DNA of 64,000 bases. Origin: a virus. Below, in pieces: positions 5,657 through 26,751 of this stretch. The stretch lies in IMG/VR virus record IMGVR_UViG_3300045988_092126. One strand, 5' to 3'. The number at the start of each line of letters is the position of its first letter. Position 1 is the first letter of the stretch. Both the position numbers and the translations under genes were made by a program. The notes beneath the pieces were generated by a model, which was given only the letters and a program-made list of their open reading frames with translations, was not told the DNA's origin and made no database searches.

Positions 5657-6201
5657 AAAACACATGGAAAGTATTATTAATTTTGTTTGCAGGAATTTTA
5701 GCAATTGCAATATTCGGAATCTTTGGAGTGCAGAGTTTTCAGAATCATGCGATAGCATTGGAAGAGCAGGTGGAATCAGCATCTTCGGATATCAAGATAC
5801 AGGAGAAGCGTAGAGTTGATCTGGTATATAATCTTGCAGATTGTGTGAAGCAATACGATAAGCATGAAAGCGAAACATTAAAAGCTATTGTTTCCGGAAG
5901 GACTTCTGGTTCGAATGATATTGAGAATGTTACTACTGCAATTTCAGCTGTGAGTGAAGCGTACCCAGAGTTGAAATCTTCTGATAACTATAAGCAACTT
6001 ATGACAGAACTTTCCTTGACAGAGAATCTTATTGCAGAATACAGGGAGAATTACAATAAATCAGTCAAAGCATATCGAAAATATGTGAAAGCATTTCCGC
6101 AGAGATCATTCTTGAATATGCTCGGATATGATAAAAAAGAATTTGAATTGCTTGATTTCGACACACCAGAATCGGCACCGCAGAATCTGTTTGAGGAATA
6201 G
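5653..6201 (+). CDS. lemA: LemA family membrane protein
   Basis: N-terminal TM segment followed by ...LEEQVESASSDIKIQEKRRVDLVYNLADCVKQY..HESETLKAIV..R, which is the LemA pattern. Confidence 0.75.
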   Translation: MKNTWKVLLILFAGILAIAIFGIFGVQSFQNHAIALEEQVESASSDIKIQEKRRVDLVYNLADCVKQYDKHESETLKAIVSGRTSGSNDIENVTTAISAVSEAYPELKSSDNYKQLMTELSLTENLIAEYRENYNKSVKAYRKYVKAFPQRSFLNMLGYDKKEFELLDFDTPESAPQNLFEE

Positions 6202-8756: not shown

Positions 8757-9179
8757 ATGGACACAAGAGAATATTTGAATCAAATCCAAAGATATGATAA
8801 AATCAGAAGAAACAAGCTCGAAGAGCTTGAATATCTTGAGTCTCTTGCACAAGGGATAAAATCTTTTTCATATGATTCTGAAAGAGTCCAGACATCCGGA
8901 CCATGCGACAAAATTGGAGAAACAGTAGCTAAAATCGTAGATTTAAAAAATGATATTATCGAAACTACAAATAAGTGTCTGGAAGTTCGCATTGAAGTTA
9001 CTAAAACAATTGATTCCGTGACTAACTCTGTTTTTTATGATATTCTTTTTAAAAGATATGCAGAAGGAAAGTCACTTGATGTAATCGCCGATGAAGTAGG
9101 TTATTCATATCAGAGGACTAAAGAACTTCATTTGTCCGCAATAGCAGCGGTGAAAAAAATAAAAGGGTTCGAATCTTAA
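8757..9179 (+). CDS. ArpU/RinA/DUF1492-like late transcriptional regulator (sigma-70 region 4-like HTH)
   Basis: 140 aa. The C-terminus reads FYDILFKRYAEGKSLDVIADEVGYSYQRTKELHLSAIAAVKKI. Confidence 0.6.
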   Translation: MDTREYLNQIQRYDKIRRNKLEELEYLESLAQGIKSFSYDSERVQTSGPCDKIGETVAKIVDLKNDIIETTNKCLEVRIEVTKTIDSVTNSVFYDILFKRYAEGKSLDVIADEVGYSYQRTKELHLSAIAAVKKIKGFES

Positions 9180-9182
9180 CTC

Positions 9183-9259
9183 CATACTGAAACATACTTA
9201 AAAACGTTGTATAATATAAAATGTAATAATGTAGCACTGGGGAAACTCAGTGCTTTTTT
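9183..9259 (+). promoter_or_regulatory. Repeated late element, copy 1: CATACT-N4-CATACT box, extended -10, hairpin + T-run
   Basis: CATACTGAAACATACT (9183-98), 11 nt gap, TG-n-TATAAT (9208-15), AGCACTG/CAGTGCT hairpin (9233-54), TTTTTT, CATGCA. A near-identical arrangement occurs at 24727-24800. Confidence 0.6.
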
Positions 9260-9285
9260 CATGCAGAAAAATAGGAGGATAGGCA

Positions 9286-12538: not shown

Positions 12539-13576
12539 ATGCCATTTAATATTTTAGAATCAATCACACCGGAAGAAAGACTTAACTTTTCTCAGGATTT
12601 CAGCGTAAAAAGGCCGGGCATTCTTGACACCATCTTCCCGGATGTCAAAACACAGTTTCTGAAAGCTGAATACTACAGACTTATGGCTGGACAGAGACTT
12701 CCAGAGGTAGCATTCGTTCATGCACTTGATACTGAAGCAGAAATCGGAACAAGACCGGGCTTCGAAAAAGTCCTGACTGAAAAGCTCTTTATTAAGAGAA
12801 AAATCAATCAGTCTGAGAGATTACAGCAGGCAATTGAAAATGGTGTGCCGGATGATGAGAATTTAAAGAAATTTGTATTTGATGATGCAGCTAATCTGTT
12901 TGAAGGAGTTGTTGCTAGAGCAAATGTCATGAAAGGCCAATTTCTTAGCACAGGTGTTGTAAAAATTAAAGAAAACAATGTGGATATGAGCATTGATTAT
13001 GGCGTTCCGTCCGATGCAAAAGTAGAAATGACAGACTGGTCTAAACCAGATGCAGATATCATGGGTGATATCCAGAAGATGGTCGCTATTGCAGAAGATA
13101 ATGGATTTGTGGTAAACAAAGCCCTTACCTCTCTCAAAATGATTAACTATATGAGAAATAACACTGCAATGCAGACCGCAGTTTTAGGAGCAGCTAACAA
13201 ACGTCTTCTGACCAAACAGGAACTCGCTAATCTGCTTATGCAGGAATACGGAATCACAATTGATCGCTGCGACGAGAAATTCAAATTCAGAAAAGCGGAT
13301 GGTTCTCTCAAAACAGGAAGATACTTCAAAGAAGATGTATTCACACTGTATGAAGCAGAGCCAAACGGTTCATTTGGTACTGGACTCTGGGGCGTAACAC
13401 GAGAGGAACTTGAATACAGACAGTTTATACAAGAAGAGAACCGTTCTTTCGTAACACTGTCTATGTGGGCCACTCCAGACCCTGTGGCAGTATGGACAAA
13501 AGCATCCGGTATGTTTGTTCCAGTAGCAGCAAAAGCTAATGGCGGTATCGTAATCGGTACCAAAGCGGGGGAATAA
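12539..13576 (+). CDS. Major capsid protein
   Basis: 345 aa. Position and size fit, and the sequence has a major capsid protein E-like character. Confidence 0.8.
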   Translation: MPFNILESITPEERLNFSQDFSVKRPGILDTIFPDVKTQFLKAEYYRLMAGQRLPEVAFVHALDTEAEIGTRPGFEKVLTEKLFIKRKINQSERLQQAIENGVPDDENLKKFVFDDAANLFEGVVARANVMKGQFLSTGVVKIKENNVDMSIDYGVPSDAKVEMTDWSKPDADIMGDIQKMVAIAEDNGFVVNKALTSLKMINYMRNNTAMQTAVLGAANKRLLTKQELANLLMQEYGITIDRCDEKFKFRKADGSLKTGRYFKEDVFTLYEAEPNGSFGTGLWGVTREELEYRQFIQEENRSFVTLSMWATPDPVAVWTKASGMFVPVAAKANGGIVIGTKAGE

Positions 13577-13774: not shown

Positions 13775-14101
13775 ATGGACGAACGGCTTGTAAATGATCT
13801 GAAAGAGTATCTATCCGATGATGCGGAAACTGACGGTATGATTTCTTTGTCTGTGAAGCGTGCAATTCGTTCGTTCAAAAAGAAACGCAACTATCCGTCT
13901 GGATATACAGATGAAAAAATCAATACCGATATGGAATACTGTTATGATTGCATATTTGATCTGGCTCTCTATTTCCTTGTGAAACAGGGGGCCGAGTTCC
14001 AAGAATCGCACTCTGAAAATTCAGTAAGTCGAAAATGGGAATCCGAAACGGAAATATATATCAATCATGGCGTTTTTCCGTTTGCAGGAAGTTTAATTTA
14101 A
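13775..14101 (+). CDS. Head-tail connector (gp6-like DNA packaging protein)
   Basis: 108 aa. The character of LKEYL..DD...D..I...V.RAI and its position after the capsid gene fit. Confidence 0.6.
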   Translation: MDERLVNDLKEYLSDDAETDGMISLSVKRAIRSFKKKRNYPSGYTDEKINTDMEYCYDCIFDLALYFLVKQGAEFQESHSENSVSRKWESETEIYINHGVFPFAGSLI

Positions 14102-14213
14102 TAAGATGGTTGGGTCACGTGGCACAGTATTTTTGTCCTCCCGGAGTGCCGCTGGGTTGCTTATATTCAGTAGGGAAAAGCAAATGTTAAGGGAGTGAAG
14201 AAAGGAACTGGCG

Positions 14214-14525
14214 ATGGGATGTGAACATGAATGTTTTAATGAACACCGCATAGAAGAATTAGAGAATAGTCTTCGACAGATGCAAGAGAGACAATCCGAC
14301 CGCCATAAAGAGTTTTATGAGCGTATCGGGGAACTGGAAAGAAAGACAGCATTAAGTGAGAATGACTTGAACCATATCAAGTCAACTGTGGATGAGATGA
14401 ATAACAATATAAAGACTCTCATGGCAGTTCCAGGAAAGCGCTATGATACAATTATTGTATGTGTTATTACGGCAATTGTCGGCGCGGTTATCGGATTTAT
14501 GTTAAACGGCATTCTTCCAGTTTGA
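14214..14525 (+). CDS. XhlA-like protein (coiled coil + C-terminal TM)
   Basis: 103 aa. N-terminal coiled coil and C-terminal IIVCVITAIVGAVIGFMLNGIL. The call rests on architecture only. Confidence 0.45.
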   Translation: MGCEHECFNEHRIEELENSLRQMQERQSDRHKEFYERIGELERKTALSENDLNHIKSTVDEMNNNIKTLMAVPGKRYDTIIVCVITAIVGAVIGFMLNGILPV

Positions 14526-14554
14526 TTCCACTTGTAAGGGAGGACGGTGGAAAT

Positions 14555-14809
14555 ATGAATTATACAGACTTTTCAGAAGATGAAAGAAAATTTTACTTAA
14601 AAGAAGCAGGATTCGATTCCAGAGAAGAAAAACTGTTTCGTTTACGGGTTTATGGCGAGAAAACACTATGGGAAGCAGCTGAACTTATGGGGTATAGTCC
14701 AAGAACCATAGACCGAATTAATAAAAGAATAAAGAAGAAAATTTCTAAAGTTGCCCCGATGTACTGTCGGGGCTTTTCTTTGTATTGTGGCGAAAACGTG
14801 GCGAAATAG
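14555..14809 (+). CDS. Small sigma-70 region 4-like HTH protein
   Basis: Internal ATG with a GGAGG RBS. ...EKTLWEAAELMGYSPRTIDRINKRIKKKI. Confidence 0.55.
   Translation: MNYTDFSEDERKFYLKEAGFDSREEKLFRLRVYGEKTLWEAAELMGYSPRTIDRINKRIKKKISKVAPMYCRGFSLYCGENVAK
14753..14781 (+). terminator. Intrinsic terminator lying inside the last 19 codons of the preceding ORF
   Basis: GCCCCGA-tgtactg-TCGGGGC followed by TTTTCTTT. Confidence 0.65.
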
Positions 14810-14964
14810 TGACGTTCAAAAACAGAGTTCCTTCCTATATAATATAATCATAGGAGAAAACACAATGATTATGTTAAGAAACCCTTACGAGGGTATATGG
14901 GAAAAGCATCGTTCTATAGATGATATGGATATGATTCTTGAATCCCGGACAGGAGGAACAGATT

Positions 14965-15462
14965 ATGGCAGGTTATCCGTATTATCCGCAACAACCAATA
15001 ATAAACAATCCATACGGACAGATACAGCCGTATCAGGACAGGCTGGCGCAATTGCAGAATAATTACCAACAGGCAATGCCTTATGGTCAAATACAGATGC
15101 AACAGTTACAGCCGGTTCCACAATCACCTATGCTTCAAGGACAGATGGTGGATGGGATTGATACTGTAAAGGCTAAAGATGTGGATATGTCCGGCAATCC
15201 TGTTTACTATCCAAAAACAGACGGAACTGAAATTTACAGAAAACAGCTTCAATCCGATGGAAGGAGCAGAATTTTTGTTTACCGACTCGTAAATCCAGAT
15301 GAACAGCAATCTAAGCAAGATGAAAAGCAGATTGATATTGAAGCAATGTTTAATCAGCTTCGGAATGATGTTTGTTCGGAGATTTCTGAAATAAAGAATA
15401 TGTTTCCGACGCAGATGTCGGGGACATCGGAACCTAAGCAGAATGGAGGTAGGCAGAGATGA
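14965..15462 (+). CDS. Q/P/Y-rich low-complexity protein with a globular C-terminal domain
   Basis: AGGAGG RBS. MAGYPYYPQQPIINNPYGQIQPYQ...MQQLQPVPQSPMLQGQ, then VDGIDTVKAKDVDMSGNPVYYPKTDGTEIYRK. Confidence 0.65.
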   Translation: MAGYPYYPQQPIINNPYGQIQPYQDRLAQLQNNYQQAMPYGQIQMQQLQPVPQSPMLQGQMVDGIDTVKAKDVDMSGNPVYYPKTDGTEIYRKQLQSDGRSRIFVYRLVNPDEQQSKQDEKQIDIEAMFNQLRNDVCSEISEIKNMFPTQMSGTSEPKQNGGRQR

Positions 15463-15704
15463 CATTCAATCCAAACGCCATGATGAAAAAGCAATTTGAG
15501 AAAATGATCTCTCAGAGGTTCGGAAGTGTTGACAACATGATGAACGATATGAGCAAATTTGCAGGTAACAATCCAACATTGAAAAATGCTTTGGATTTAT
15601 ATAAAAAAGGTGATACAGACCAGTTACATCAAATACAGCAAAATGTATTTAATGAAAAGCACTTATCTCCAGATGGAATTATACAAAAATTCCTTGGATT
15701 ATAA
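15459..15704 (+). CDS. Hypothetical protein
   Basis: 81 aa with an ATGA overlap to the upstream gene. Confidence 0.55.
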   Translation: MTFNPNAMMKKQFEKMISQRFGSVDNMMNDMSKFAGNNPTLKNALDLYKKGDTDQLHQIQQNVFNEKHLSPDGIIQKFLGL

Positions 15705-15800
15705 CACTTCCCCACAATTGGGTGATTAAAAATCGCTACAATTCGGGACGACAGCCGCGGATGTCTCCTATTGTAAATAAAATTTAAGGAGACTAAAAAC

Positions 15801-16610
15801 ATGATGAATGGTTCAAATTATAGTCTTAGCGACATTGCTGCCGCTACAGGCTCTAATAATCGCGCCAATGATATGTGGGGCGGTGATGGCTTTTCACTTA
15901 TCTGGCTCGTCCTGATCTTCGCAATCTTCGGCTGGGGAGGTTTTGGCGGCTGGGGCGGCGGCTTTGGCGGTAACGGTGGAAACGGTGCGAACGGTGCCGG
16001 TTTCCAAGGATGGGCTACCCGTTCAGATATTAATGAGGAATTCGCCCTTAATGATATTCAGAATGGTATCAGAGGTATTCAGCAGGGTATCTGCGACAGC
16101 ACGTATTCTCTTAACAATACCATGCAGAGTGGCTTTAATGGTATGAATGTCGGAATGCTTCAAGGCTTCAACGGCGTTCAGCAGGCAATCAATGCTGATA
16201 CTGTAGCCGGTATGCAGAATACCAACGCATTACAGTCTCAGTTAGCAAACTGTTGCTGTGAAACAAGAGAAGCTATACAGGGTATCAACTACAACCTTGC
16301 TACCAACACTTGTGCTCTCCAGAACACAATGAACAACAACACCAGAGATCTTCTGGAAAACCAGAACAGCAACACAAGAGCAATCCTTGACTTCCTGACT
16401 AACGATAAGATTGCAACATTACAGGCAGAAAATACTGATCTGAAACGTGCTGCGTCTCAGGATCGTCAGTCTGCACTGCTTACAACTGCTATGGCTTCAC
16501 AGACTCAGCAGTTAATCAATGCAATTAATCCGGCGGCTATTCCGGCATATGTTGTTCCGAATCCGAATACCTATTACGGTGGATGCGGATGTAACAGCGG
16601 ATGCTGCTAA
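15801..16610 (+). CDS. TM + Gly/Trp-rich + Asn/Gln-rich protein with a Cys-rich tail
   Basis: FSLIWLVLIFAIFGWGGFGGWGGGFGGNGGNGANGAG..., an internal CCCE motif and a C-terminal YYGGCGCNSGCC. The RBS GGAGAC can pair with an upstream GTCTCC (15763-68). Confidence 0.7.
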   Translation: MMNGSNYSLSDIAAATGSNNRANDMWGGDGFSLIWLVLIFAIFGWGGFGGWGGGFGGNGGNGANGAGFQGWATRSDINEEFALNDIQNGIRGIQQGICDSTYSLNNTMQSGFNGMNVGMLQGFNGVQQAINADTVAGMQNTNALQSQLANCCCETREAIQGINYNLATNTCALQNTMNNNTRDLLENQNSNTRAILDFLTNDKIATLQAENTDLKRAASQDRQSALLTTAMASQTQQLINAINPAAIPAYVVPNPNTYYGGCGCNSGCC

Positions 16611-16640
16611 GTAACTCACCCTTAGAGGTTGACTAATTCT

Positions 16641-16672
16641 AAGAGGTGGGTTGCGGCTCACCTCTTATTTTG
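16641..16672 (+). terminator. Intrinsic terminator
   Basis: AAGAGGTG-ggttgcggct-CACCTCTT followed by ATTTT. Confidence 0.7.
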
Positions 16673-16688
16673 ATTGAGAGGTAAAGAT

Positions 16689-17114
16689 ATGAGTTGTAAA
16701 AATGTTTGTAAGCTCTGCAACCATCTTGTAATCAGCCAAGCCGTTGCGTTTACAGGAGGCAATCTTGTAATCACACTTCCGGCAGGCAGTTACAACAATG
16801 GAGAGAAATATTGTATTGTTGTTGCGCAAAGCATACCGGAAGCCACTACAATTACTGCTCCGGTAATGATTCAGATAGGAACAGGAACAACTTTGTATCC
16901 GCTAGAGAATCGTTGCTGCGCACAGGTTACGGCTTGCGGAATAAGAACCAGAACAAAGTACGCAACCAGAGTAGCTACAAGTGCAACCGGCGGAGTATTC
17001 AAGATGTTAGGAAATCCGGCTTGTAGTCCAAGTAACAATTTAACAGCAATTGATGGTACAGCCCCAACGACAGACACACCTGTTACACAGGCTGCCAGAA
17101 AGGGGGCAATGTAA
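16689..17114 (+). CDS. Cys-containing hypothetical protein
   Basis: MSCKNVCKLCNHLVISQAV...RCCAQVTACG. Internal ATG of ORF 16674..17114 with a GAGAGG RBS. Confidence 0.6.
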   Translation: MSCKNVCKLCNHLVISQAVAFTGGNLVITLPAGSYNNGEKYCIVVAQSIPEATTITAPVMIQIGTGTTLYPLENRCCAQVTACGIRTRTKYATRVATSATGGVFKMLGNPACSPSNNLTAIDGTAPTTDTPVTQAARKGAM

Positions 17115-17740
17115 TGCATAAAGTTGCAATGGAAATGGGAAAATGGGCTATGGAAAAAGCCAAAGCACATGGATTTGACAATCTTAGTTCTCAGGACTGG
17201 GATGATCTGAAAGATTGCTTAGAAGCGGTAAAATGCGCAATCTGTGCAGATAAAGATTACAGAATCGTAGAAGCTATGGACGAATGTGAACAGGAAGAGA
17301 AGTATCTTGGACGCATGGGATATGACAACTATCGTTACGCAAACGGCAGATTTGCACCAAAAGGCAGAGGAAGCCGAATGGGATATATGCCGTATCTCCA
17401 TATGCAGGATGACGACTGGGTAAGTGAATATCCGAGCAATCCAGAGTTTGAACGTAATATGTACCGCATGGGCTATCATCCAGACCGTAGTGATATGAGA
17501 ATGGACGGTATGAACAATAGGCAATCCAGATATGGTGAAACCTACGACAGATACAGCGAGAATCGCAGACATTACCATGATTCCAAAGATGCTGAATCTA
17601 AGAGAAAAATGGACGATTCCATGAAAGAGTATACAGAAGATATCATCCGCAATATGAAAGAAATGTGGGATGATGCAGACGCATCAATCAGACAGCAGAT
17701 GAAAACTGACTTAACACGTTTCATACAGCAGATGAATTGA
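17114..17740 (+). CDS. Charged protein with R-M-G-Y repeats
   Basis: 208 aa with RMGY occurring 3 times and D/E/R/K/Y/M-rich composition. Confidence 0.6.
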   Translation: MHKVAMEMGKWAMEKAKAHGFDNLSSQDWDDLKDCLEAVKCAICADKDYRIVEAMDECEQEEKYLGRMGYDNYRYANGRFAPKGRGSRMGYMPYLHMQDDDWVSEYPSNPEFERNMYRMGYHPDRSDMRMDGMNNRQSRYGETYDRYSENRRHYHDSKDAESKRKMDDSMKEYTEDIIRNMKEMWDDADASIRQQMKTDLTRFIQQMN

Positions 17741-17756
17741 ATATGAAATGAATTTT

Positions 17757-17789
17757 GCCCTTGTTACAGGAATGTAGCAGGGGCTTTTT
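17757..17789 (+). terminator. Intrinsic terminator
   Basis: GCCCTTG...CAGGGGC followed by TTTTT. Confidence 0.6.
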
Positions 17790-17815
17790 AGTTGAGAAAA
17801 GGATGGTGATAAGCC

Positions 17816-18202
17816 ATGCTAAGACAATTTTACATGAACGGCGACCTATGGAGGGTGCAGTTTGTATCTCCGCATGACAGCGTGTTAATTGACCGTACAG
17901 GCAATAGAACACTTGGAGTATCGGATTATTCCACACATATTATTTCAATCGCAAATAACCTGTATGGAGAACTTCTGAACCGTGTATTTATTCATGAGCT
18001 AGGGCATTGCGTGATGTTCAGTTATGGTCTATTGCCAGAACTTCATCGTATGGTCAAGAAACGGTATTGGGTGGATGCAGAGGAATTTGTATGCAATATT
18101 CTGGCAGACTATGGACAGTTTGTTATTGGCACAGCCAGAGATATTTTAGGAAACCAGTTCACATATGTAGCTCCCATTGGGGCAGAAAGGATGATTGCAT
18201 AG
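17816..18202 (+). CDS. Small HExxH zinc metallopeptidase (ImmA/SprT/DUF955-like)
   Basis: The motif FIHELGHCVM in a 128 aa protein. Confidence 0.6.
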   Translation: MLRQFYMNGDLWRVQFVSPHDSVLIDRTGNRTLGVSDYSTHIISIANNLYGELLNRVFIHELGHCVMFSYGLLPELHRMVKKRYWVDAEEFVCNILADYGQFVIGTARDILGNQFTYVAPIGAERMIA

Positions 18203-18445
18203 ATGGCAAAAGCAGAAAACACAATTATTTTTGATGGCATTCAGTACAATCCCGGTGATGAATTGCCGGATTTAGGCAGTTGGGTATGTACAGATGCAAG
18301 AGGTATGGTTCGTGATTACGAGGGACTTTCAAAAGACGTGTCAAAGCTCCCGCATTATGTACAGAGTGGTTCTTCGGCGTTGTGCCTTGATACTTCTGAA
18401 TTATACGAATATCACAAACCTACTGATACATGGTACAAACTGTAA
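18203..18445 (+). CDS. Hypothetical protein
   Basis: 80 aa, immediately upstream of the tail fibre gene. Confidence 0.55.
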   Translation: MAKAENTIIFDGIQYNPGDELPDLGSWVCTDARGMVRDYEGLSKDVSKLPHYVQSGSSALCLDTSELYEYHKPTDTWYKL

Positions 18446-18458
18446 AGGAGAAGCGCAT

Positions 18459-20702
18459 ATGGCATTAACAGCAAAGAAAGTATATGCAATATTAAAACGC
18501 CAGATTTCCGATATGGAAGCAAAATTAAATAGCCCTGTAAGATACAGAGGTACAGTTGCGACTGCTGATTTGCTTCCATTAAATCCAGACATTGGCGATA
18601 TGTACAATATCGAGTCTAAATCTATTTACGGCGAAGCAGGAATGAATGTGGCATGGAACGGCGTAGTATGGGACACTATGGGCGCCCCGATTGATATGTC
18701 ACTTTACATTAAATCAAACGAATTAGCGGATTGGGTAAAACAGCAGAACAAGCCGACATATACAGCTGAAGAAGTTGGAGCGTTGCCGGCTGATACAAAG
18801 ATTCCAAGCAAAACCAGTGAATTGCAGAATGACTCTGGATTCTTGACTAAAATTCCAGACAATTATCTTTTCGAAACAGACAAAACACTGAACGTATCTG
18901 GAAAAGCTGCTGACGCAAAGGCTACCGGAGATAAAATCACAGAATTGTCAGCTGATATATCAAATAAATTGAATAAGAACCAAGGTTCGGAAAACTCTGG
19001 CAAGATTGCCGGAATTAACGAATCTGGCGATATCGTTCCGATGTTTCCAGTAAGCGTAGATTACAACGAAGAAACAAACTGCCTTGAGTTTGGGTCTGAT
19101 CAAAAAATGGAGCTTAATAAAGGTATCAACCTTGATAGCACTCTCACGAAGACTGGATATGCCGCTGATGCAGGCGCAGTTGGAGAAATAACTAATTCAC
19201 TAAAGGAAGATTTGTATGTTAAAACTTACAACATTTTTGATGTTAATTTTTTACCTCGAGCATTCATTCCTCTCACAGGCTCTCACGGCGGTGAACTGTT
19301 TCTTGATAATAATGATAATTATTCGGCAACAAATGAAACTATTAATGTTCTTCCGAATACTCAATACACCTTTTCAAATGGTAGTGAATCTATCCCTTAT
19401 GAGTTACAGTTAAGTGTTATTTTTTATGACAAAGATATGAGGTTCTTAGGTTATGCAAGTAACACCATTAATAATTTTTCAAAATTTTTTAAATTTACAA
19501 CTATTGAAAACACTAATCATCTAAGATTTCAACTTCGTTCCACAGGAAAAGGCTCGGATATTCCTAATATAAAAAAATGGCAGTTAAACGAGGGTAATCT
19601 ATTACCTTATTTGGATAATTATGTGTTAAATTGTTCAACGGATAATATTGGAAATGAATTAACCGATATAAACATTGATAATCCACAGGTCAGAGATTTT
19701 GTTGAAGATGTTGATTACACAAATCAAGAATACACAATAACACAAGTTGGTACATATTCTGCACCATCTGTTTATTATAGAAAAGATTGTGGTTTTCCAA
19801 TGGTTGTTAAATGGAAATTAAATAGAGATATAAAAAATCAAATATTATATATTTCTACAAACAAATTAATTCCTATTGCTGATACAGTTGCTGTGAAATC
19901 ATATGATATTCCTTGTGGAATAAGTGATTTTGCTGTATATAATTTAATCCCAAATGCAACATATTACTATAAAGTTTGTGGTACTGATTTTGACAACAAT
20001 TTAATTGTAATTAAAGAAGGGTGTTTTACCACTATTGGACAAGTGCATATGTTAAAAATTGACGGATTAAAAAATGTTCGTGATTTAGGTGGTTGGCTTA
20101 CGCCAAATGGTAAAATTAAATACGGATTATTATTTAGAGGTTGCGAACTTGATGATACCGGAGTCGGTGTGGAATTAACACATGAAGGTAAAAAAGAACT
20201 TTTTGATAGAATAAGAATAAAAACTGACATTGATTTAAGAACGGATGTTGGTAATACAAAATCGCCTATCGGTACTCTTGTTGATTATAATTGTTATCCT
20301 ATTCAACCATATGATACAGGTTTGAAAGACACTATAACAAAAGGATTAATAAAATCTATTTTTGAAAAAATTGAAGAAAAGTTATCAAAAAGTAATGCGA
20401 TATATTTCCATTGCCAAGGTGGTAGAGATAGAACTGGAACACTTGCTTTTTTGATTCTAGGTGTTTTAGGTGTGAGCGAATCCGATATAGCAAAAGATTA
20501 TGAACTTACAGAATTTGCGTATGCAAGTTATAAGGCTGATAATCCGAATACGTCTAGGAAGTTTGCTCAATATGTATCTATGGTAAGTTATATTAAAACT
20601 TTCAATGGGGCAACATTTAATGATAAGATTATTAGTTATCTTTTGAGCATCGGAATTAGTCAAGCCACTATTAACAATATTAAGTCGTATATGGTTGCTT
20701 AA
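18459..20702 (+). CDS. Tail fibre-like protein with a C-terminal protein-tyrosine-phosphatase-like domain
   Basis: Internal ATG with a GGAG RBS. The N-terminus (YRGTVATADLLP..GDMYNI..AWNGVVWDTMG) and the G-x-AADA-x-x-x-G repeats are typical of fibres. The C-terminus has NVRDLGGW...IDLR...HCQGGRDRTG, a CX5R signature at 20409-20438. Confidence 0.7.
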   Translation: MALTAKKVYAILKRQISDMEAKLNSPVRYRGTVATADLLPLNPDIGDMYNIESKSIYGEAGMNVAWNGVVWDTMGAPIDMSLYIKSNELADWVKQQNKPTYTAEEVGALPADTKIPSKTSELQNDSGFLTKIPDNYLFETDKTLNVSGKAADAKATGDKITELSADISNKLNKNQGSENSGKIAGINESGDIVPMFPVSVDYNEETNCLEFGSDQKMELNKGINLDSTLTKTGYAADAGAVGEITNSLKEDLYVKTYNIFDVNFLPRAFIPLTGSHGGELFLDNNDNYSATNETINVLPNTQYTFSNGSESIPYELQLSVIFYDKDMRFLGYASNTINNFSKFFKFTTIENTNHLRFQLRSTGKGSDIPNIKKWQLNEGNLLPYLDNYVLNCSTDNIGNELTDINIDNPQVRDFVEDVDYTNQEYTITQVGTYSAPSVYYRKDCGFPMVVKWKLNRDIKNQILYISTNKLIPIADTVAVKSYDIPCGISDFAVYNLIPNATYYYKVCGTDFDNNLIVIKEGCFTTIGQVHMLKIDGLKNVRDLGGWLTPNGKIKYGLLFRGCELDDTGVGVELTHEGKKELFDRIRIKTDIDLRTDVGNTKSPIGTLVDYNCYPIQPYDTGLKDTITKGLIKSIFEKIEEKLSKSNAIYFHCQGGRDRTGTLAFLILGVLGVSESDIAKDYELTEFAYASYKADNPNTSRKFAQYVSMVSYIKTFNGATFNDKIISYLLSIGISQATINNIKSYMVA

Positions 20703-20797
20703 CTAAAGAGGGCTTTAGTTAACTATTAAAACCACAGGCACAGCGCATTTAATCATTATAAACAGTTGACAATAAATAACAGATATGGAGGAATCAC

Positions 20798-22000
20798 ATG
20801 AAAACGCAGAAAACAAAAGGATTTTATGACCGTGAAAATGATACGGTACATATTTTTATTCCGCCTGCTCCGACAGAATCGGAGAGAGGTGGAATTACTG
20901 CAAAAGAAAAAACAACGGAATCCCTCGAAGTTACTATTGATTCAGCTACGGGGAAAGCATATGTAGCACTCGACAAAACACTTTCAAAGACAGGCGAGGC
21001 GGCGGATGCAGCAGTTGTAGGCGAAAAACTCACATCAATGGGTGTCGCAATTGAAAATGTAAAGGAAGATAAAGCCGATAAAACATCTCTTGCACAAACC
21101 GACAGAAAGCTTGATGCACTCTGGAAACTCAATCAGGGTATCAGCTATGAATTTCAGACAGATGAAGCAGAAGCATATCAGAAAACGGTTCCGAGTGGTG
21201 CAAAGATGGTAAGCATTAAAAGTATTGGCGGTAAGACGATTGTCTGGAATCAGTTAAATTTGAATAACGAAAATTCTGTTACGAAAAACGGTATTTCTTT
21301 TATAAACAATAAGGACGGTTCGTGGACAATAACTGGAACTTGTAGTACATCTAATGGCGGCAGTGCTGACGTACTAATATACGGATTTGCAGTTAAATAT
21401 GTATCAGGTCATAAATATTTAGTTAAAGCCGATAAATATTCTGATGGAAATTATGGTTTTGCAATTAACGGCAGGTCTTACCCACTAAAAAAAGCAATAA
21501 TTATTAATTACGCTTTTAATCCAGTAATATTTGTAAACGACAAGGCAACCGTGGATAACGTTACGATGCGAATGAATATTTTCGACCTCACCCAAATGTT
21601 CGGCGCAGGTAACGAACCATCCACCCCAGAGGAATTCGAAGCTATGTTTCCAGCAGACTATTATCCGTACAATGCAGGCGAGTTGATGAGCGCACCTGTG
21701 AATGAAGTTGTATATTTAGATACCAAAAATCAAGAAACATCATATCCAATCCCACAAGCCATTCTTGACCTAGAGGGTTATGGAGAGAGTGGGAATTTTG
21801 TTGATTTTGTGGAAAAGAAATACCACAAAGGGGACAGGACGATTGATATATCAGACATTATGGGAGATACATTCCAACAACCTCTTGAAGTTGAAGTAGG
21901 CGGTACACTGACGTTCAAAAACAGCAACGGTAATGATTACAGAATCCCTGTACCAAGCTCAGAGGAATATGTAATATCTTTAGCGGAGGTAGCAAAATGA
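20798..22000 (+). CDS. Tail fibre / receptor-binding protein
   Basis: 400 aa. It shares the LDKTLSKTGEAADAAVVGEKL motif with the preceding gene. Confidence 0.6.
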   Translation: MKTQKTKGFYDRENDTVHIFIPPAPTESERGGITAKEKTTESLEVTIDSATGKAYVALDKTLSKTGEAADAAVVGEKLTSMGVAIENVKEDKADKTSLAQTDRKLDALWKLNQGISYEFQTDEAEAYQKTVPSGAKMVSIKSIGGKTIVWNQLNLNNENSVTKNGISFINNKDGSWTITGTCSTSNGGSADVLIYGFAVKYVSGHKYLVKADKYSDGNYGFAINGRSYPLKKAIIINYAFNPVIFVNDKATVDNVTMRMNIFDLTQMFGAGNEPSTPEEFEAMFPADYYPYNAGELMSAPVNEVVYLDTKNQETSYPIPQAILDLEGYGESGNFVDFVEKKYHKGDRTIDISDIMGDTFQQPLEVEVGGTLTFKNSNGNDYRIPVPSSEEYVISLAEVAK

Positions 22001-22149
22001 CTGAAATGCAGAAGAAAATGATAGAGAAACTTGGTCTGGCTGAATCAGACTTTGAGAAAAAAGAAACGGTGGTAAGCAATGAAGAACGTATCAATGACCT
22101 TGAGATTGCTGTCTGCGAACTGCTTGAAACACTTGGGAATGCTGAATAA
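21997..22149 (+). CDS. Small protein (50 aa) distal to the tail fibres
   Basis: Read by eye, with an ATGA overlap. MTEMQKKMIEKLGLAESDFEKKE...INDLEIAVCELLETLGNAE. Confidence 0.45.
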   Translation: MTEMQKKMIEKLGLAESDFEKKETVVSNEERINDLEIAVCELLETLGNAE

Positions 22150-22165
22150 GAAAAGGAGAAATAAA

Positions 22166-22342
22166 ATGATGGCAAAAGTATATTTTAACAGATTGATCGT
22201 AGGAACTATTACATATGATGCAATTCCTGAGAAATATCAGGATAAAGTAAGAGAATATGGTATTGAGTATGTGAAAAAAGGAAAACTTCCTGTAGAAGAA
22301 TATGAAATGCTGTATAAAGAGGAATATCCAGAGGGTAAGTAA
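22166..22342 (+). CDS. XkdX-like small protein
   Basis: AAGGAGA RBS. ...YVKKGKLPVEEYEMLYKEEYPEG resembles the XkdX pattern VxxGxITxExYxxI. Confidence 0.45.
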   Translation: MMAKVYFNRLIVGTITYDAIPEKYQDKVREYGIEYVKKGKLPVEEYEMLYKEEYPEGK

Positions 22343-22437
22343 TTAACACCAGTTTAAAAAATTGAACAAACAGGAGAAAATCAAAATGGAATTTAATATC
22401 AAGACCAGGCTTGCTCATGCTTGGAGGGCGTTAATTA

Positions 22438-22466
22438 TTGACTATTGGACACCAATAATATATAAT
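22438..22466 (+). promoter_or_regulatory. Sigma-70-type promoter
   Basis: TTGACT, a 17 nt spacer, then TATAAT. Confidence 0.6.
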
Positions 22467-22483
22467 GATTATAAATTCATTAT

Positions 22484-22675
22484 ATGGAGGTGAGTTCGAT
22501 AAAAGTAGAAAGAAATATCATGATTAACAAAGCTGGTGGAAACGCAGGAAAAGAATCTGTCAACTATAAAATATCACTTCCGTCAGAAGCAGTTCGGATG
22601 ATAGGTGTTACCAAAGAAGACAGAAAAGTAATTCTCGAATATGATGAAGAGAAAATAACAATCAAAAAAGCATAA
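22484..22675 (+). CDS. AbrB/SpoVT-like small DNA-binding protein (start uncertain, 22484 or 22520)
   Basis: YKISLPSEAVRMIGVTKEDRKVILEYDEEKITIKK. Confidence 0.45.
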   Translation: MEVSSIKVERNIMINKAGGNAGKESVNYKISLPSEAVRMIGVTKEDRKVILEYDEEKITIKKA

Positions 22676-22681
22676 TAAAAA

Positions 22682-22773
22682 GGAGTTAGGTTCCCGACTA
22701 CCAATCAAAAAAAACCTAACTCCAACACCACAAAGGGTACAGTATTATTATAACATGGTACTCTCCCTTTGTG
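22682..22773. repeat. Two inverted repeats upstream of the recombinase gene (attP or operator candidates)
   Basis: GGAGTTAGGTT(22682-92)/AACCTAACTCC(22713-23) and CACAAAGGG(22729-37)/CCCTTTGTG(22765-73). Confidence 0.5.
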
Positions 22774-22796
22774 AACCCAAAAGGAGGGTATTTTTT

Positions 22797-23792
22797 ATGA
22801 GAGATAAATTCGTGAATGGGTTCATGACAAAACTGTATGGAGAAATTCCGGAAGAGTATCTGGAAACGATCAGAAACAAACTGGCGTTGTATGTAAATGA
22901 TTTTGATATCAGTCAAAGAGAAACAGCAGTTGTAAAGTATACTGGATATTTGCCGGATTTTTACAAAACTTACATTGTAAGTAGAAAAATCGAGGGTTTG
23001 AGTAAAAAGACGCTCGAACTCTACAATCTTTATCTGAATGATTTCTTTTTCACATTCAATAAAAAAGCTGAAGATATTACCTCAAATGACATTCGTGTAT
23101 ATCTGTATAATGCTCAGGAAAGCAGAAGTCTAAGTAATCGAACACTTGATAGCCGCAGAACTGCCATTCATGCATTTTTCGAATGGGCTGCAAACGAGGG
23201 ATATGTGGGCAAAAACCCATGCAGATCAATCAAAAATATCAAATATGAGCGTATAGAAAAACAACCTCTGACAGATATGGAACTGGAAAGAATCAGGCAA
23301 GCTTGCGAAACCGTACGTGAAAAAGCACTGGTTGAATTTCTGTATAGTACCGGAGCCAGGGTTACAGAAGTGTGTGGTGTAAAGAAAACAGATATAGACA
23401 TTTACAAAGGTGAAGTAGTTGTTTTGGGGAAAGGCAACAAGCATAGAACAACATACCTAAACGCTCGTTGTAAATTACTTTTAAAACAATACTTTGCAAT
23501 TAGAGATGATGAATCGGAATATCTTTTTGTAAGTGAAAGGAAACCACATAAGGTACTCAAAAAAGAAGCAATTGAAAGAATTGTACGAATAATCGGTGAA
23601 CGGGCAGAACTGGACAGACCTCTAACACCGCATCTATTTAGGCATACTCTTGCGACTCTTATGCTTCAAAGAGGTACGCCGATTACTGAGGTGCAGAAGA
23701 TTCTTGGACATGTCAACATTAACACGACAATGATCTATGCAAAGGTATCTGATGAAGATGTAAAAGTGTCTCATATGAAATATGCAATATAA
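22797..23792 (+). CDS. int: Tyrosine recombinase / integrase (XerC/D-like)
   Basis: Contains TGARVTEV, GKGNKHR, HLFRHTLAT and GHVNINTTMIYAKV, which supply the R..K..HxxR..H..Y catalytic set. Confidence 0.85.
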   Translation: MRDKFVNGFMTKLYGEIPEEYLETIRNKLALYVNDFDISQRETAVVKYTGYLPDFYKTYIVSRKIEGLSKKTLELYNLYLNDFFFTFNKKAEDITSNDIRVYLYNAQESRSLSNRTLDSRRTAIHAFFEWAANEGYVGKNPCRSIKNIKYERIEKQPLTDMELERIRQACETVREKALVEFLYSTGARVTEVCGVKKTDIDIYKGEVVVLGKGNKHRTTYLNARCKLLLKQYFAIRDDESEYLFVSERKPHKVLKKEAIERIVRIIGERAELDRPLTPHLFRHTLATLMLQRGTPITEVQKILGHVNINTTMIYAKVSDEDVKVSHMKYAI

Positions 23793-23815
23793 GATTTTTG
23801 AAGGGAGAAATCGCT

Positions 23816-24214
23816 ATGAGAGGATTGAAACGCCAAAAACAGGCAGTGTATTGGTCAAGGGTAACTGAAGACCTTGACGGGATAGACACAATCAAAACGT
23901 ACCAAAAGCCAGAATTACATCACCTCTCCGTATCTGCGACTGCCGGAACGCCAGAGGAATTATCCGCCGGGTACGTCCCTGATTACGATAGGTACATCAC
24001 GAATTTTGACCGTAGCTTCAAACCGCAAATTGCAGATGTGTTCTGGATAGACTGCAAACCGGAATTGAACGAATCTGGAGAACTTATCTTAGGCGAAGGC
24101 GGGGAGCCTACAGTTCCGCCAGATTACCGTCTGAAAAAGATTCTCGATACCCAGAAAGGCAATGTGGCACGATACGGTATTAAGTACACAGGAGATGGCT
24201 CAGATGGCGAATAA
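23816..24214 (+). CDS. Neck / head-tail joining candidate
   Basis: 132 aa with an AAGGGAG RBS. The call rests on position only. Confidence 0.4.
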   Translation: MRGLKRQKQAVYWSRVTEDLDGIDTIKTYQKPELHHLSVSATAGTPEELSAGYVPDYDRYITNFDRSFKPQIADVFWIDCKPELNESGELILGEGGEPTVPPDYRLKKILDTQKGNVARYGIKYTGDGSDGE

Positions 24215-24722
24215 GACTATCAAAATGGAACTGTCGCATAAATCTATACAGGACACAATAAAACAGCTCAGGCAGTACCAAAACAGCCTTAAAAGTAAGA
24301 ATGAATTATTTGTTCGTCGACTGTCTGAACTTGGAATCCCTGTCATTGATCAGAATATTTCACTGTCGCAGGGCGATTCCGATAAAAATCACAGCACCTA
24401 CATCAAAATCAATTCGTTCGGCGATTACTCACAAGCAACTTTAGTATGTGAGGGCGCAGGTCTGTTGTTCATAGAGTTTGGTGCCGGAATCCATTACAAT
24501 ACCCCGGCAGGCTCAAGCCCGCACCCGAAAGGGCAGGAACTTGGATATACAATCGGTTCTTACGGTCATGGTAAAGGAAAAAACGATTCTTGGACATACA
24601 CGTCTGAAACTGGCGAATGGGTAAGATCATATGGTACCGAAGCCACTATGCCGGTTTATAAAGCAAGCATGGAAATCATACAGAACATTCGGAAAATCGC
24701 AAAAGAGATATTTTCTACTTAA
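24204..24722 (+). CDS. Neck / tail-component candidate (start uncertain)
   Basis: About 172 aa. The call rests on position only. Confidence 0.4.
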   Translation: MANKTIKMELSHKSIQDTIKQLRQYQNSLKSKNELFVRRLSELGIPVIDQNISLSQGDSDKNHSTYIKINSFGDYSQATLVCEGAGLLFIEFGAGIHYNTPAGSSPHPKGQELGYTIGSYGHGKGKNDSWTYTSETGEWVRSYGTEATMPVYKASMEIIQNIRKIAKEIFST

Positions 24723-24726
24723 ACTT

Positions 24727-24800
24727 CATACTGAAACATACTATTCAAAATGGTATACTATAACATATAAAAGCATCTGCAAACAAGCAGGTGCTTTTTT
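24727..24800 (+). promoter_or_regulatory. Repeated late element, copy 2
   Basis: CATACTGAAACATACT (24727-42), 11 nt gap, TGGTATACT, GCATCTGC/GCAGGTGC hairpin (24773-94), TTTTTT, CATGCA. Confidence 0.6.
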
Positions 24801-24832
24801 CATGCAAAAACATAGAAAAGGAGAATGTAAGC

Positions 24833-25471
24833 ATGTTAGTAGAAACAATGATTATCAGAAAAGTAGAAACGAGCATTGTCACAAGCCTAGATGTCGCGGA
24901 GACTTTTGGAAAAGAACATAAAAGAGTATTGCAGGACATTAGAGAATTAGGATGCAGTGAAGAATTCGGACAGCACAATTTCGTGCCTTCCTCATATACA
25001 AGTATTCAGAATAAAAAGCAACCTATGTACTGTATGACAAGAGATGGGTTCACACTTCTTGTTATGGGATACACTGGCGAAAAAGCCATGAAATTCAAAG
25101 AAGGATATATCCGCCAGTTCAATGCAATGGAAAAAGTTCTTTTAGGGAAAATAAGAGAACGAGACAAAGGCATTGCAGTGAGACAGGCGTTGACCAATGC
25201 ACTTAAAGAATCTCAAGAAAATGAGAGAATACATGGTCATGCGTATTCGACATATACAGATATGGTATATCGTACATTGTTTGGCAAAACTGCAAAACAA
25301 CTTAGAGAAGAAAAGGGAATCTCTACCAAGGACAATCTGAGAGATTTCCTCACTGAAGAAGAATTAAAAGCAGTTCAATCAAAAGAAATGCTTGTTAGCG
25401 GATTGATTGACTGTGGATGGGGATATTCTCAAATAAGAGATTTCCTAAAGGACAGTCTCAAAATATGTTAG
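24833..25471 (+). CDS. Rha-family phage regulatory protein (antirepressor-like)
   Basis: ...VTSLDVAETFGKEHKRVLQDIRELGCSEEFGQHNFVPSSY...MTRDGFTLLVMGYTGEKAMKFKEGYIRQFNAME. Confidence 0.7.
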   Translation: MLVETMIIRKVETSIVTSLDVAETFGKEHKRVLQDIRELGCSEEFGQHNFVPSSYTSIQNKKQPMYCMTRDGFTLLVMGYTGEKAMKFKEGYIRQFNAMEKVLLGKIRERDKGIAVRQALTNALKESQENERIHGHAYSTYTDMVYRTLFGKTAKQLREEKGISTKDNLRDFLTEEELKAVQSKEMLVSGLIDCGWGYSQIRDFLKDSLKIC

Positions 25472-25489
25472 AACAGGCGAGGTGATTCT

Positions 25490-25897
25490 ATGCCAGACAC
25501 GATCAATAACCCAGTATCAGAAGTATTTTCTAGGTGGAGTAAAGATATTCAACCAGCAGTCGGCAAAGGCAATTTTTCCATGGAGAAAAGCCAGACAATA
25601 GCATCTGGCAAAACGAAATACGCCAGATTGTTCATGATGGGGAATCCCACGCAGTCGACAAGTCTTGAAGGTCACGAATGTGCAACAATTCTTTCGTTTC
25701 AAGTGGAAAGTTACGCATCTGGAACGAAGGCTTTATCGACTGCATATGAAATCGACAGCAAGAGCCATCAGGCTATGGTTTCAATGGGATTTCGCCGGAC
25801 ATACGGGCCAGAAGAGGTTGCAAACTCTGAAAAGAGTTTTAAACGAATCATAAGCCGGTACAGCAGAATTTACACCGGGCAATTATTGGAAGCGTAA
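25490..25897 (+). CDS. Tail completion / terminator candidate
   Basis: 135 aa, positioned upstream of the major tail gene. Confidence 0.4.
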   Translation: MPDTINNPVSEVFSRWSKDIQPAVGKGNFSMEKSQTIASGKTKYARLFMMGNPTQSTSLEGHECATILSFQVESYASGTKALSTAYEIDSKSHQAMVSMGFRRTYGPEEVANSEKSFKRIISRYSRIYTGQLLEA

Positions 25898-25912
25898 CAG
25901 CTTCTATTTTTT
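25889..25912 (+). terminator. Weak intrinsic terminator
   Basis: GAAGC-gtaaca-GCTTC followed by TATTTTTT. Confidence 0.45.
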
Positions 25913-25938
25913 ATACCAAAAAGAAAGGAGAGTGTCCT

Positions 25939-26151
25939 ATGAGTAAAGATAAATTACAATGGCTGAAAGCTGCGGGAATCAGAGCTGTTAAGACAATTGC
26001 TCAGACAGCAGTTGCAACAATCGGAACCGCGACAGTCCTTGGAAGCGTTGACTGGAAGATGGTCGTATCCGCGTCCGTTCTTTCCGGCGTTTTATCCTTG
26101 CTTACATCTGTAGCAGGGCTTCCAGAACTGAAAACAAGCGCAGATGAATAG
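25939..26151 (+). CDS. Holin-like two-TM protein (r1t/LL-H-like pattern)
   Basis: WLKAAGIRAVKTIAQTAVATIGTA...VDWKMVVSASVLSGVLSLLTSVAGLP. Confidence 0.5.
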   Translation: MSKDKLQWLKAAGIRAVKTIAQTAVATIGTATVLGSVDWKMVVSASVLSGVLSLLTSVAGLPELKTSADE

Positions 26152-26196
26152 AAAGGACGGTGATCCTTTTATCTCCCGGATGCAGGGTTACGCATC

Positions 26197-26217
26197 AGAG
26201 CCACATGGCTCTTTTTT
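26197..26217 (+). terminator. Intrinsic terminator
   Basis: GAGCC-acat-GGCTC followed by TTTTTT. Confidence 0.5.
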
Positions 26218-26256
26218 ATTGTGATTTTATAGCTGAAAAGCAGAAAGGAGCCGAAT

Positions 26257-26751
26257 ATGGCAGATAAAGGAAATATAGCAGGCGTAAGTACCGTTGGTTC
26301 GCTTACCGGATATGCAGTTGAAACAACAGCAGGTACTAAACCGACAGCTTTTAAACTTCTTCACAGAATCAATGCTTCTGATGAAATTAAAATTGATGTA
26401 GAAACAATCGACGCTTCCGCACTTGAAGATGAAGTTGAAAGAACTATTGCAGGACGTGGTTCTACAGGTGGCACATTCAACGTAACTGTGAACGTAACTG
26501 ATGAAACTATCACTGAATGGGAAACCTTAATCAGCGAATACAAAACAGCAAAAACAGATGGAAAATCTATGTGGTATGAAGAGTACTTCCCGTCTCTTAA
26601 GAAAGCGTTCTTCACAAAAATCGAGCCACCGACAATCATTCCTAAACCGGCAAGAGATCAGAACGGTCTGTTAACCGTCGAAATGTCTCTTACTATCAAT
26701 GAGTACGTCGGACCGGGCGACGCAATAGTTCCAACTGACAGCGGCATTTAA
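26257..26751 (+). CDS. Major tail protein
   Basis: 164 aa, positioned before the chaperone pair and the tape measure gene. Confidence 0.65.
   Translation: MADKGNIAGVSTVGSLTGYAVETTAGTKPTAFKLLHRINASDEIKIDVETIDASALEDEVERTIAGRGSTGGTFNVTVNVTDETITEWETLISEYKTAKTDGKSMWYEEYFPSLKKAFFTKIEPPTIIPKPARDQNGLLTVEMSLTINEYVGPGDAIVPTDSGI

Follow-up and report, generated by a model that had tools for sequence, protein, structure and literature searches.

The locus described here raises a simple question: is a recombinase-ended block of genes in the middle of a phage structural operon a foreign element, or is it a lasting part of the phage that carries it? The window, by which we mean the whole stretch of 64,000 nucleotides (nt) that was analysed (IMG/VR virus record IMGVR_UViG_3300045988_092126), covers most of a ~75-kb siphophage genome with nearly every gene on the plus strand. 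Its structural operon breaks off after a putative head-tail adaptor gene and restarts with a stopper-like gene. The block between them (14102-23815, ~9.7 kb) consists of fifteen plus-strand genes, b01 to b15 (Table 1), the last of which encodes a tyrosine recombinase. A first-pass annotation, made from the sequence alone, took the block for a nested mobile element, a satellite-like passenger or a transplanted tail-fibre/lysis module. We believe, with a probability of about 60%, that it is a fixed and ancient accessory-fibre/host-range module with moron-like genes, present in a lineage of human-gut siphophages and associated with a recombinase that resembles the Rin system of Bifidobacterium prophages, and that it is not a passenger element.

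The two proteins that flank the block have no sequence-level match in Pfam, PHROG, NCBIfam or PDB searches, and AlphaFold2 models of both were compared with known structures by Foldseek. The 132-amino acid (aa) protein on the right gave a model with a predicted local distance difference test score (pLDDT) of 84.8. Of its ten best matches, nine are to neck or stopper proteins of phages or to a gp16-like protein of a prophage, including the stoppers of phages 812 and T1, SPP1 gp16 and the necks of Milano, XM1 and 7-7-1, with modest scores (probability up to 1.0, E values of at least 9e-3 and none at or below 0.001, template-modelling (TM) scores of 0.43-0.55). The model of the 108-aa protein on the left (pLDDT 83.7) is all-helical and matched only four HK97 gp6 chains in the PDB, weakly (E values 1.1-4.8, TM scores 0.40-0.52). 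Because of these fold matches, the block does appear to split the neck genes, as the first-pass annotation had proposed, with moderate evidence on the right flank and weak evidence on the left.

The position of the block does not vary within the lineage. IMG/VR holds ~170 contigs with close relatives of each flanking gene, and the 91 loci with both flanking genes represent 54 distinct adaptor-to-stopper intervals of 1.5-9.8 kb (up to 12.9 kb by contig coordinates). Genes b01-b09 lie between adaptor and stopper in 50 of these 54, at 80-100% identity, and the other four are internal-deletion variants. Beyond b01-b09, only the first 12-35% of b10 is common to the relatives, and everything downstream of that is variable. 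The left 4.4 kb of the block is among the best conserved DNA of the lineage. Distant relatives (compared contigs and loci are given L numbers) keep the same gene order, both those with a stopper that is 59-67% identical (L166, L168/L169) and those with an adaptor that is 56-59% identical (L414-L416). In the minimal form of the locus (L166 and L414), a b10 stub of 197-203 aa abuts the stopper gene and there is no recombinase gene. No empty site was found among the ~170 IMG/VR relatives of both flanks, the distant relatives reached by protein searches, or GenBank phages. The architecture of the block is unusual yet stable, and it is its sub-cassettes that are mobile.

It is easy to see why a nested integrative element or satellite-like passenger, inserted between adaptor and stopper and moved by its terminal recombinase, had been suggested. 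The recombinase gene is indeed the last gene, with its 3' end 23 nt from the junction, and the gene content is atypical for a neck region. The block also has its own promoters and at least three terminators, as had been claimed: a terminator scan gave three intrinsic-terminator-like hairpins (14753-14773, 16640-16667 and 17757-17784), and a sigma70-like promoter at 22438-22466 matches the consensus at 11 of 12 positions. Nevertheless, we consider this explanation highly improbable, since all of the relatives carry the block in place and its left part is so well conserved, while the recombinase cassette can be parted from the other block genes and is often missing. The composition of the block as a whole is ordinary, with a 3-mer distance inside the genome's own distribution (fraction 0.19), and only a 1.5-kb cassette that encodes the fibre tip is an outlier. 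The 7-bp repeat ATAAGAT, which had been offered as junction evidence, is present, but a 7-mer match is expected by chance, and repeat scans found nothing longer at the block junctions that would resemble the direct repeat of an att core. No genes for replication, a repressor, or capsid or packaging redirection were found by Pfam, PHROG and NCBIfam scans of all block proteins. Four short variants (L131, L120, L031 and L025) were considered as excision products and rejected, as each is a deletion of microhomology or chimeric type and their end points are unrelated. For example, one arose through a 5-9-nt microhomology between b02 and b15, and another fuses the first 16 codons of b05 to a fibre C-terminus; none of the four joins 14101 to 23796. 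Finally, b15 is not the only recombinase of the phage. A canonical 404-aa tyrosine integrase starts at 63849, and therefore b15 was rejected as the sole integrase and is regarded as accessory.

A genuine nested mobile element does occur in the block of one relative. L168 has an insertion sequence (IS; DUF4096 and DDE_Tnp_1 open reading frames (ORFs), L168:4243-5006) between b07 and b08, which is missing from the otherwise identical L169.

The third suggestion, a transplanted tail-fibre/lysis module, agrees with the gene content. Homologues of b05 and b06 follow lysis genes elsewhere, the b10 tip is found on post-tail fibres, and b15 homologues normally lie between fibre and lysis genes. However, only sub-cassettes are mobile at present, and any transplantation of the block would be ancient. 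The five Cys/Gly/Tyr-rich genes b03-b07 form a cassette of this kind. Homologues of b05, some of them with b06- or b03-like genes, stand directly after holin/endolysin genes in bajarodcaudo virus 5, Butyrivibrio virus Ceridwen and the ~43-kb phages L420-L424, and for this reason we regard the b03-b07 cassette as relocated in the window lineage. Pfam, NCBIfam, PADLOC and PDB sequence searches returned nothing for these five proteins; a resemblance to spore-coat or YjcZ-like proteins was an impression only and was dropped.

The other members of the conserved core are small. The b01 protein, named Hemolysin XhlA in source annotations, is 60-100% conserved in all relatives. Only one of the two helix-turn-helix (HTH) regulators that had been claimed was found, namely b02, and the terminator hairpin at 14753-14773 sits inside its 3' end. 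The predicted Zn-peptidase corresponds to the HExxH protein b08. The b09 gene is fused to the b10 N-terminus in L416, L083, L087 and L091, and it is linked to a fibre gene and a recombinase gene in the distant phage L178. We would picture the ancestral core as b01-b09 plus a b10 stub of ~200 aa abutting the stopper gene, with b08, b09 and the 83-aa N-terminal domain of b10 probably mounting the fibre on the virion. Everything distal to the conserved b10 junction would then be a diversification slot.

The b10 gene encodes a 747-aa fibre-like protein that ends in a Y_phosphatase3 domain. Conservation of its N-terminal domain is 45-75% and extends to the most distant relatives, where little else of the protein is present, and homology breakpoints fall at 18706, 18742, 18840, 18917 and 19213. 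The exchangeable tip is bounded on the left by the junction site TTCACTAAAG (19196-19205). This site encodes some of the residues of ...ITNSLKEDL, a motif with the conserved form ...ADAxAVG...SLKEDL. The right edge is a perfect hairpin, TTAACTAAAG-AGGG-CTTTAGTTAA (20699-20722), immediately after the b10 stop codon. Between these edges, 19196-20717/20731 is 99-100% identical in the unrelated contigs L417-L425, where it ends fibres with different N-termini at the canonical position after the tail genes and before the lysin gene. The tip cassette has a GC content of 30.1%, compared with 39.5 +/- 2.0% for the genome, lower than all 500 of 500 control windows. C-terminal cassettes, receptor-binding or enzymatic, pass between this locus and other phages, and the junction and the post-stop hairpin are their boundaries.

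The phosphatase domain itself (20055-20702, b10 residues ~533-747) has an intact HCQGGRDR (CX5R) loop. Such a cysteine-phosphatase fold is an unusual distal fibre domain, and phosphorylated wall polymers could be its substrate. The near-identical (99-100%) tip is present in at least three phage backgrounds.

Two other kinds of change affect the slot. Extra fibre genes have been added to it, such as b11-b13, which are present in only ~4 of the 54 relatives. The segment 21070-22347 (b11C-b13) is 98% identical in L419 and L421, in the opposite order relative to the phosphatase cassette. Family searches confirmed that there are two fibre-like genes in the block, along with the AbrB-like gene and the tyrosine recombinase; the XkdX-like genes that had been reported came down to a single match to an uncharacterised PHROG. 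In addition, the fibre tip is mutagenised in some relatives by diversity-generating retroelements (DGRs). L161 and L169 have a reverse transcriptase (RT) gene in the same slot, and an adenine-specific pair of template and variable repeats (TR/VR) targets the 3' end of the b10-homologous fibre gene. The template repeat and the fibre 3' end differ almost only at adenines, which together with the reverse transcriptase makes these bona fide DGRs. The window has neither a reverse transcriptase gene nor a TR/VR pair. An apparent mutual exclusion of RT and recombinase in the slot (Fisher p=4e-4) was discarded as an artefact of a 10-kb locus limit, as at least 12 contigs have both.

The b14-b15 cassette has the sharp edges of a separate unit, and at least 5 different contexts precede it across the loci. 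A full copy is present in 23 of the 54 intervals, a divergent (47%-identical) one in six and a remnant in 11; the other 14 have none. The b15 gene lies 2.1 kb downstream of the b10 stop codon and 0.8 kb downstream of that of b11. Its most likely start is 22797, predicted from the 331-aa length of all homologues. The protein has both features of a Xer-like (armless) tyrosine recombinase, a catalytic domain (PF00589, 1.2e-39) and a SAM-like core-binding domain (PF13495/PF02899), and it scores 235 bits against the NCBIfam XerA/integron-integrase model NF040815, for which the cut-off is 220. The catalytic residues R188, K212, H279, R282, H305 and Y314 are invariant in the alignment, and their spacing is presumably the same as in E. 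coli XerD. In sub-lineages with neck proteins that differ by 30-40%, b15 is 81-100% conserved. Thus, b15 has the appearance of an accessory Xer-like recombinase with its catalytic residues intact, from a clade that seems to travel with phage fibre genes. The hairpin between b14 and b15 (22682-22723) has no T-run, and it could be a regulatory or a recombinase-binding site.

Homologues of b15 (44-65% identical) are found in other phage types and in integrated Lachnospiraceae prophages. All of the closer homologues with a context that was examined (L171, L175, L176, L178, L392/L393 and L401-L413) adjoin tail-fibre genes, in most cases with the lysis genes on the other side. In total, the recombinase gene is beside a fibre gene in six different phage backgrounds, and inverted sites bracket the fibre tips in four of the six. 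For example, six L137-type relatives of the window lineage have a 47%-identical clade-A recombinase in the same slot, together with AATGAATTAAAT at the fibre constant/variable junction (...AINELNSK) and an inverted copy just after the fibre stop codon; these inverted pairs bracket six different tips, one per relative. L392 and L393, where b14 is 90% identical and a clade-B recombinase 65% identical, have an inverted repeat of 14-26 nt that links the fibre junction (...AIASLKEDL) to a post-stop site. The two recombinase clades co-vary with two site types. L176 has a 22-nt inverted repeat directly upstream of the recombinase gene; a one-mismatch match to this site at window position 38186 proved to be an ordinary ribosome-binding site and start region. 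In the L175 prophage, a site of 18-22 nt occurs three times, two direct and one inverted, and the reading frame of each copy continues into its own alternative C-terminus for a fibre-like protein of 167 aa.

That L175 locus (L175:9144-12920, Lachnospiraceae bacterium CAJTEW010000004.1) is a clear shufflon candidate in its own right, and its large invertible segment includes the recombinase gene and an amidase endolysin gene.

From these patterns, the substrates of b15 would most likely be short inverted sites, one where the constant part of the fibre meets the variable part and the other directly behind the fibre stop codon, and recombination between them would invert or exchange the fibre tip, like the role proposed for Rin. 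Lysogeny would rest on the separate 404-aa integrase, if the lineage integrates at all. The true lysogeny enzyme is probably this protein. Of 80 relatives, 76 encode it at full length; minus-strand genes follow it in relatives, and the homologue L271:11368-12582 matches PF00589 at 3e-20. No integrated copy of the lineage was found, with the stopper gene lacking a match among 185,579 species genomes.

Several observations weigh against our interpretation, most of them concerning the recombinase. Inverted repeats of at least 14 nt are absent from the block, the whole window and the 54 relatives. In the window, only 9 of the 10 bases of TTCACTAAAG agree with the hairpin arm at 20713-20722, and an extended comparison gives 12 of 16. 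There are no opposed alternative C-terminal cassettes in the window or in the blocks of the 54 relatives; these were seen only in the L175 prophage. The hairpin also occurs in recombinase-free loci and behind the fibre genes of many other phages, and it may simply be a terminator. As it is present in one copy per locus and without recombinase genes, its candidacy as a recombinase-specific site is weakened. Seven predicted inverted products are absent from 15 billion proteins in an exact look-up, two recombinant-junction patterns searched for in IMG/VR were absent or otherwise explained, with no true junction, and all high-scoring segment pairs (HSPs) between relatives are co-linear. Some phages have the phosphatase cassette but no such recombinase nearby. 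Furthermore, b15 is truncated or missing in ~25 of the 54 relatives and so is dispensable, and the HK97 gp6 matches of the adaptor, its only fold matches, are not significant. Because of the imperfect 9/10 sites, the widespread hairpin, the lack of opposed cassettes and the lack of inverted variants, we only tentatively infer that the recombinase acts on the fibre locus in the window genome; it is possible, but the odds are against it.

One alternative is that b15 is a decaying relic with no current substrate, and that all variation in the slot comes from DGRs and from ordinary recombination, whether homologous or illegitimate, that takes place at conserved coding motifs and at terminator hairpins. 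The remnants and absences among the relatives, the lack of a good inverted repeat or alternative cassettes in the window, the occurrence of the hairpin without recombinases and the failure to find inversion variants all agree with this, as does a partial deletion of the module-proximal site copy in the window. However, we find it doubtful, since b15 is still full-length, with its six catalytic residues and its own promoter, and is conserved where the neck proteins diverge; the inverted sites of the L137-type loci and of L392/L393 are also hard to explain as terminators. Another possibility is that b14-b15 is a self-contained accessory cassette for integration or resolution, either a second integrase for an alternative attB or a Xer-like dimer resolvase, and that it has no role with fibres, its closeness to them reflecting only a permissive slot. 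Such a cassette would account for the sharp edges, the sigma70-like promoter, the many upstream contexts, the score above the XerA/integron-integrase cut-off and the hairpin just upstream of b15. In addition, most of the homologues (L171 and L401-L413) have no inverted repeats nearby, and the gene lies at most 2-3 kb from the prophage end in L171 and L175. We think this improbable because the canonical integrase is conserved, no integrated copy of the lineage turned up, the fibre adjacency recurs in six backgrounds with bracketed tips in four, and the frequent decay of b15 argues against an essential lifestyle function.

The accessory-fibre module with a Rin-like recombinase, which we prefer to both, could be extended further. 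The slot might be a dedicated diversification site at which Xer-like recombinases flip the tip or swap it between co-infecting phages by a double site-specific crossover (recombinase-mediated cassette exchange). The sites would be short and inverted, with one copy inside a conserved stretch of fibre coding sequence (NELNSK or SLKEDL) and another directly behind the stop codon of the fibre gene. If true, such exchange would account for a 1.5-kb tip whose edges fall exactly at the sites and which otherwise unrelated gut phages share at 99-100% identity, although we regard the idea as a long shot.

Several known systems share parts of this arrangement. In the Rin shufflon of Bifidobacterium prophages, an armless XerD-like invertase gene lies beside variable ends of a receptor-binding protein gene and the integrase gene is elsewhere (Mavrich et al. 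2018, PMC6109161). The window shares the first of these features, an armless XerD-like tyrosine recombinase gene beside a receptor-binding/fibre gene, and also the separate canonical integrase; candidate short crossover sites at the fibre constant/variable junction would be a further likeness, and the layout is clear in L175, L176 and the L137-type loci. However, the window has no opposed variable cassettes and only a weak 10-bp inverted match, its locus lies between neck genes whereas that of Rin follows the tape-measure and distal-tail genes, its recombinase gene has a small AbrB/SymE-like companion, and no inversion was observed. The likeness drawn here is one of layout.

The G segment of Mu with Gin, the C segment of P1 with Cin, and Min of p15B are tail-fibre inversion systems that use serine invertases. 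They resemble the present locus in having a constant N-terminus, a variable C-terminus, a crossover site in conserved coding sequence and an adjacent recombinase gene, but here the recombinase is a tyrosine recombinase and there is a single cassette, whereas to our knowledge the three classical systems always have two or more opposed cassettes. The DGRs of L161 and L169 are of the BPP-1 Mtd type, with the variable repeat at the C-terminus of the b10 homologue, while the window has a phosphatase-fold tip gained by exchange. Genes with their own promoters and terminators inside a structural operon recall morons and mosaic late operons, the sharp-bordered cassettes common to unrelated phages recall mosaic exchange, and the grouping of XhlA-like and XkdX-like genes with fibres recalls the end of a PBSX-type late operon (fibre, XkdW/XkdX, XhlA, holin and lysin). 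Both the extent of the block (5-13 kb) and its place between the adaptor and stopper genes are unusual for either, the arrangement is fixed lineage-wide, and the real endolysin gene of the window is 16 kb downstream of the block. The fibritin gene wac of T4 is a fibre gene encoded beside neck genes, and a similar position would make sense for b10 if it were a neck or collar fibre.

The lineage is abundant in human-gut viromes: IMG/VR alone holds the ~170 related contigs, and single block proteins occur on hundreds. Its odd gene order is a stable architecture that hosts a hot spot of host-range change. The accessory fibre with its exchangeable tip, the DGRs of sister genomes and the fibre-associated tyrosine recombinase offer handles on how gut phages of Clostridia retarget their hosts. 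The near-identical phosphatase-fold tip across phage groups, the co-moving five-gene Cys/Gly/Tyr-rich cassette and the possible site-specific cassette exchange are leads to follow. A caution for annotators is that a recombinase gene within a structural operon does not necessarily mark a nested element or a prophage border.

Table 1. Features of the window in order along the plus strand; positions count from its first nucleotide.
Feature	Position	Strand	Remarks
578-aa ORF at the large-terminase position	7019-8755		33% identical to the counterpart beside a homologous portal gene in L178
Portal	9286-10755		Head module
Major capsid	12539-13576		Head module
Putative head-tail adaptor, 108 aa	13775-14101	+	After the major capsid gene; final head gene before the block
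b01, XhlA-like membrane protein	14214-14525	+	Coiled coil and C-terminal transmembrane segment; phrog_937/1193 'hemolysin' 1e-12
b02, small sigma-70 region-4-like HTH protein	14552-14809	+	Pfam Sigma70_r4 E=3.5e-4 (under curated cut-off); phrog_36
b03-b07, five-gene Cys/Gly/Tyr-rich cassette	14938-17740	+	phrog_21718; phrog_16490 (8e-66)
b03		+	Q/P/Y-rich; in the b03-b07 cassette
b04		+	In the b03-b07 cassette
b05	15801-16610	+	N-terminal transmembrane segment, Gly-rich, Cys-rich tail; phrog_16490
b06	16689-17114	+	Cys-rich
b07	17114-17740	+	Tyr/Met-rich
b08, HExxH protein	17816-18202	+	DUF3920-like (source name); HELGH motif; phrog_1233/13742 (b08/b09)
b09, 80 aa	18203-18445	+	Conserved fibre partner, as is b08
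b10, constant part	18459-19195	+	N-terminal anchor domain of ~83 aa and proximal shaft
b10, exchangeable C-terminal cassette	19196-20722	+	Y_phosphatase3 (CX5R), PF13350 2.7e-27
b11, second fibre-like gene	20798-22000	+	xADAAVVG...VKED junction motif common to b10
b12	21997-22149	+
b13, XkdX-like	22166-22342	+	One PHROG match 2e-6, no Pfam match
b14-b15 recombinase cassette	22430-23815	+	Sharp homology edges in ~25 loci
b14, AbrB/SymE-like, 63 aa	22484-22675	+
Hairpin GGAGTTAGGTT-N20-AACCTAACTCC	22682-22723		11-bp perfect inverted repeat between b14 and b15
b15, Xer-like tyrosine recombinase	22797-23792	+	331 aa; ORF opens at 22755
Stopper/head-closure-like neck protein, 132 aa	23816-24214	+	Structural operon restarts here
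186-aa protein		+	In neck region 24162-26751, after the stopper-like gene
Rha regulator	24791-25471	+	PF09669 1e-32
135-aa protein		+	In neck region 24162-26751, between Rha and holin
r1t-type holin	25939-26151	+	PF16945 on homologues
Putative major tail protein, 164 aa	26257-26751	+	Position only, no family match
Tape-measure protein	27708-32684		Tail module
1688-aa BspA-LRR/Big_3 protein			Tail module, after the tape-measure gene
NlpC/P60 endolysin	39543		End of the tail module; 16 kb downstream of the block
Canonical tyrosine integrase, 404 aa	63849-64000	+	N-terminus only; runs past the window end

Outside the block, the head module also includes genes for a Mu-F-like protein and a scaffold protein between the portal and major capsid genes. 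The neck genes are interrupted twice more, by the Rha regulator gene and by the r1t-type holin gene, both of which the first-pass annotation had missed. The Rha gene is missing in L161 and is elsewhere in L168, and therefore the neck region tolerates several independent insertions. A stretch of ~95 nt upstream of the portal gene (9178-9274) is repeated upstream of the Rha gene (24722-24815) at 78-92% identity. It contains a TGnTATAAT-like element and may be a shared promoter or regulatory region.

Some other features of the window and its relatives are worth recording. Five clustered tRNA genes (Gln, Met, Tyr, Met, Trp) lie at 2170-3177, upstream of the packaging genes, and a LemA-family protein is encoded at 5653-6201, upstream of the terminase position. 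The large terminase has 902 aa and a LAGLIDADG_3 match in L415 (2863-5571) and L416 (2833-5541), compared with 561 aa in L414, and the difference suggests that an intein or a homing endonuclease has been inserted. A 640-bp AT-rich non-coding stretch (38900-39540) separates the tail genes from the endolysin gene. It has clustered GTAACG(T)TAC repeats and tandem ATAGAATAAGAATA units, and might serve as an origin, as an attP arm region or as a regulatory array. A LytTR-type response regulator with no obvious kinase is encoded on the minus strand after the lysin gene (41047-41862).

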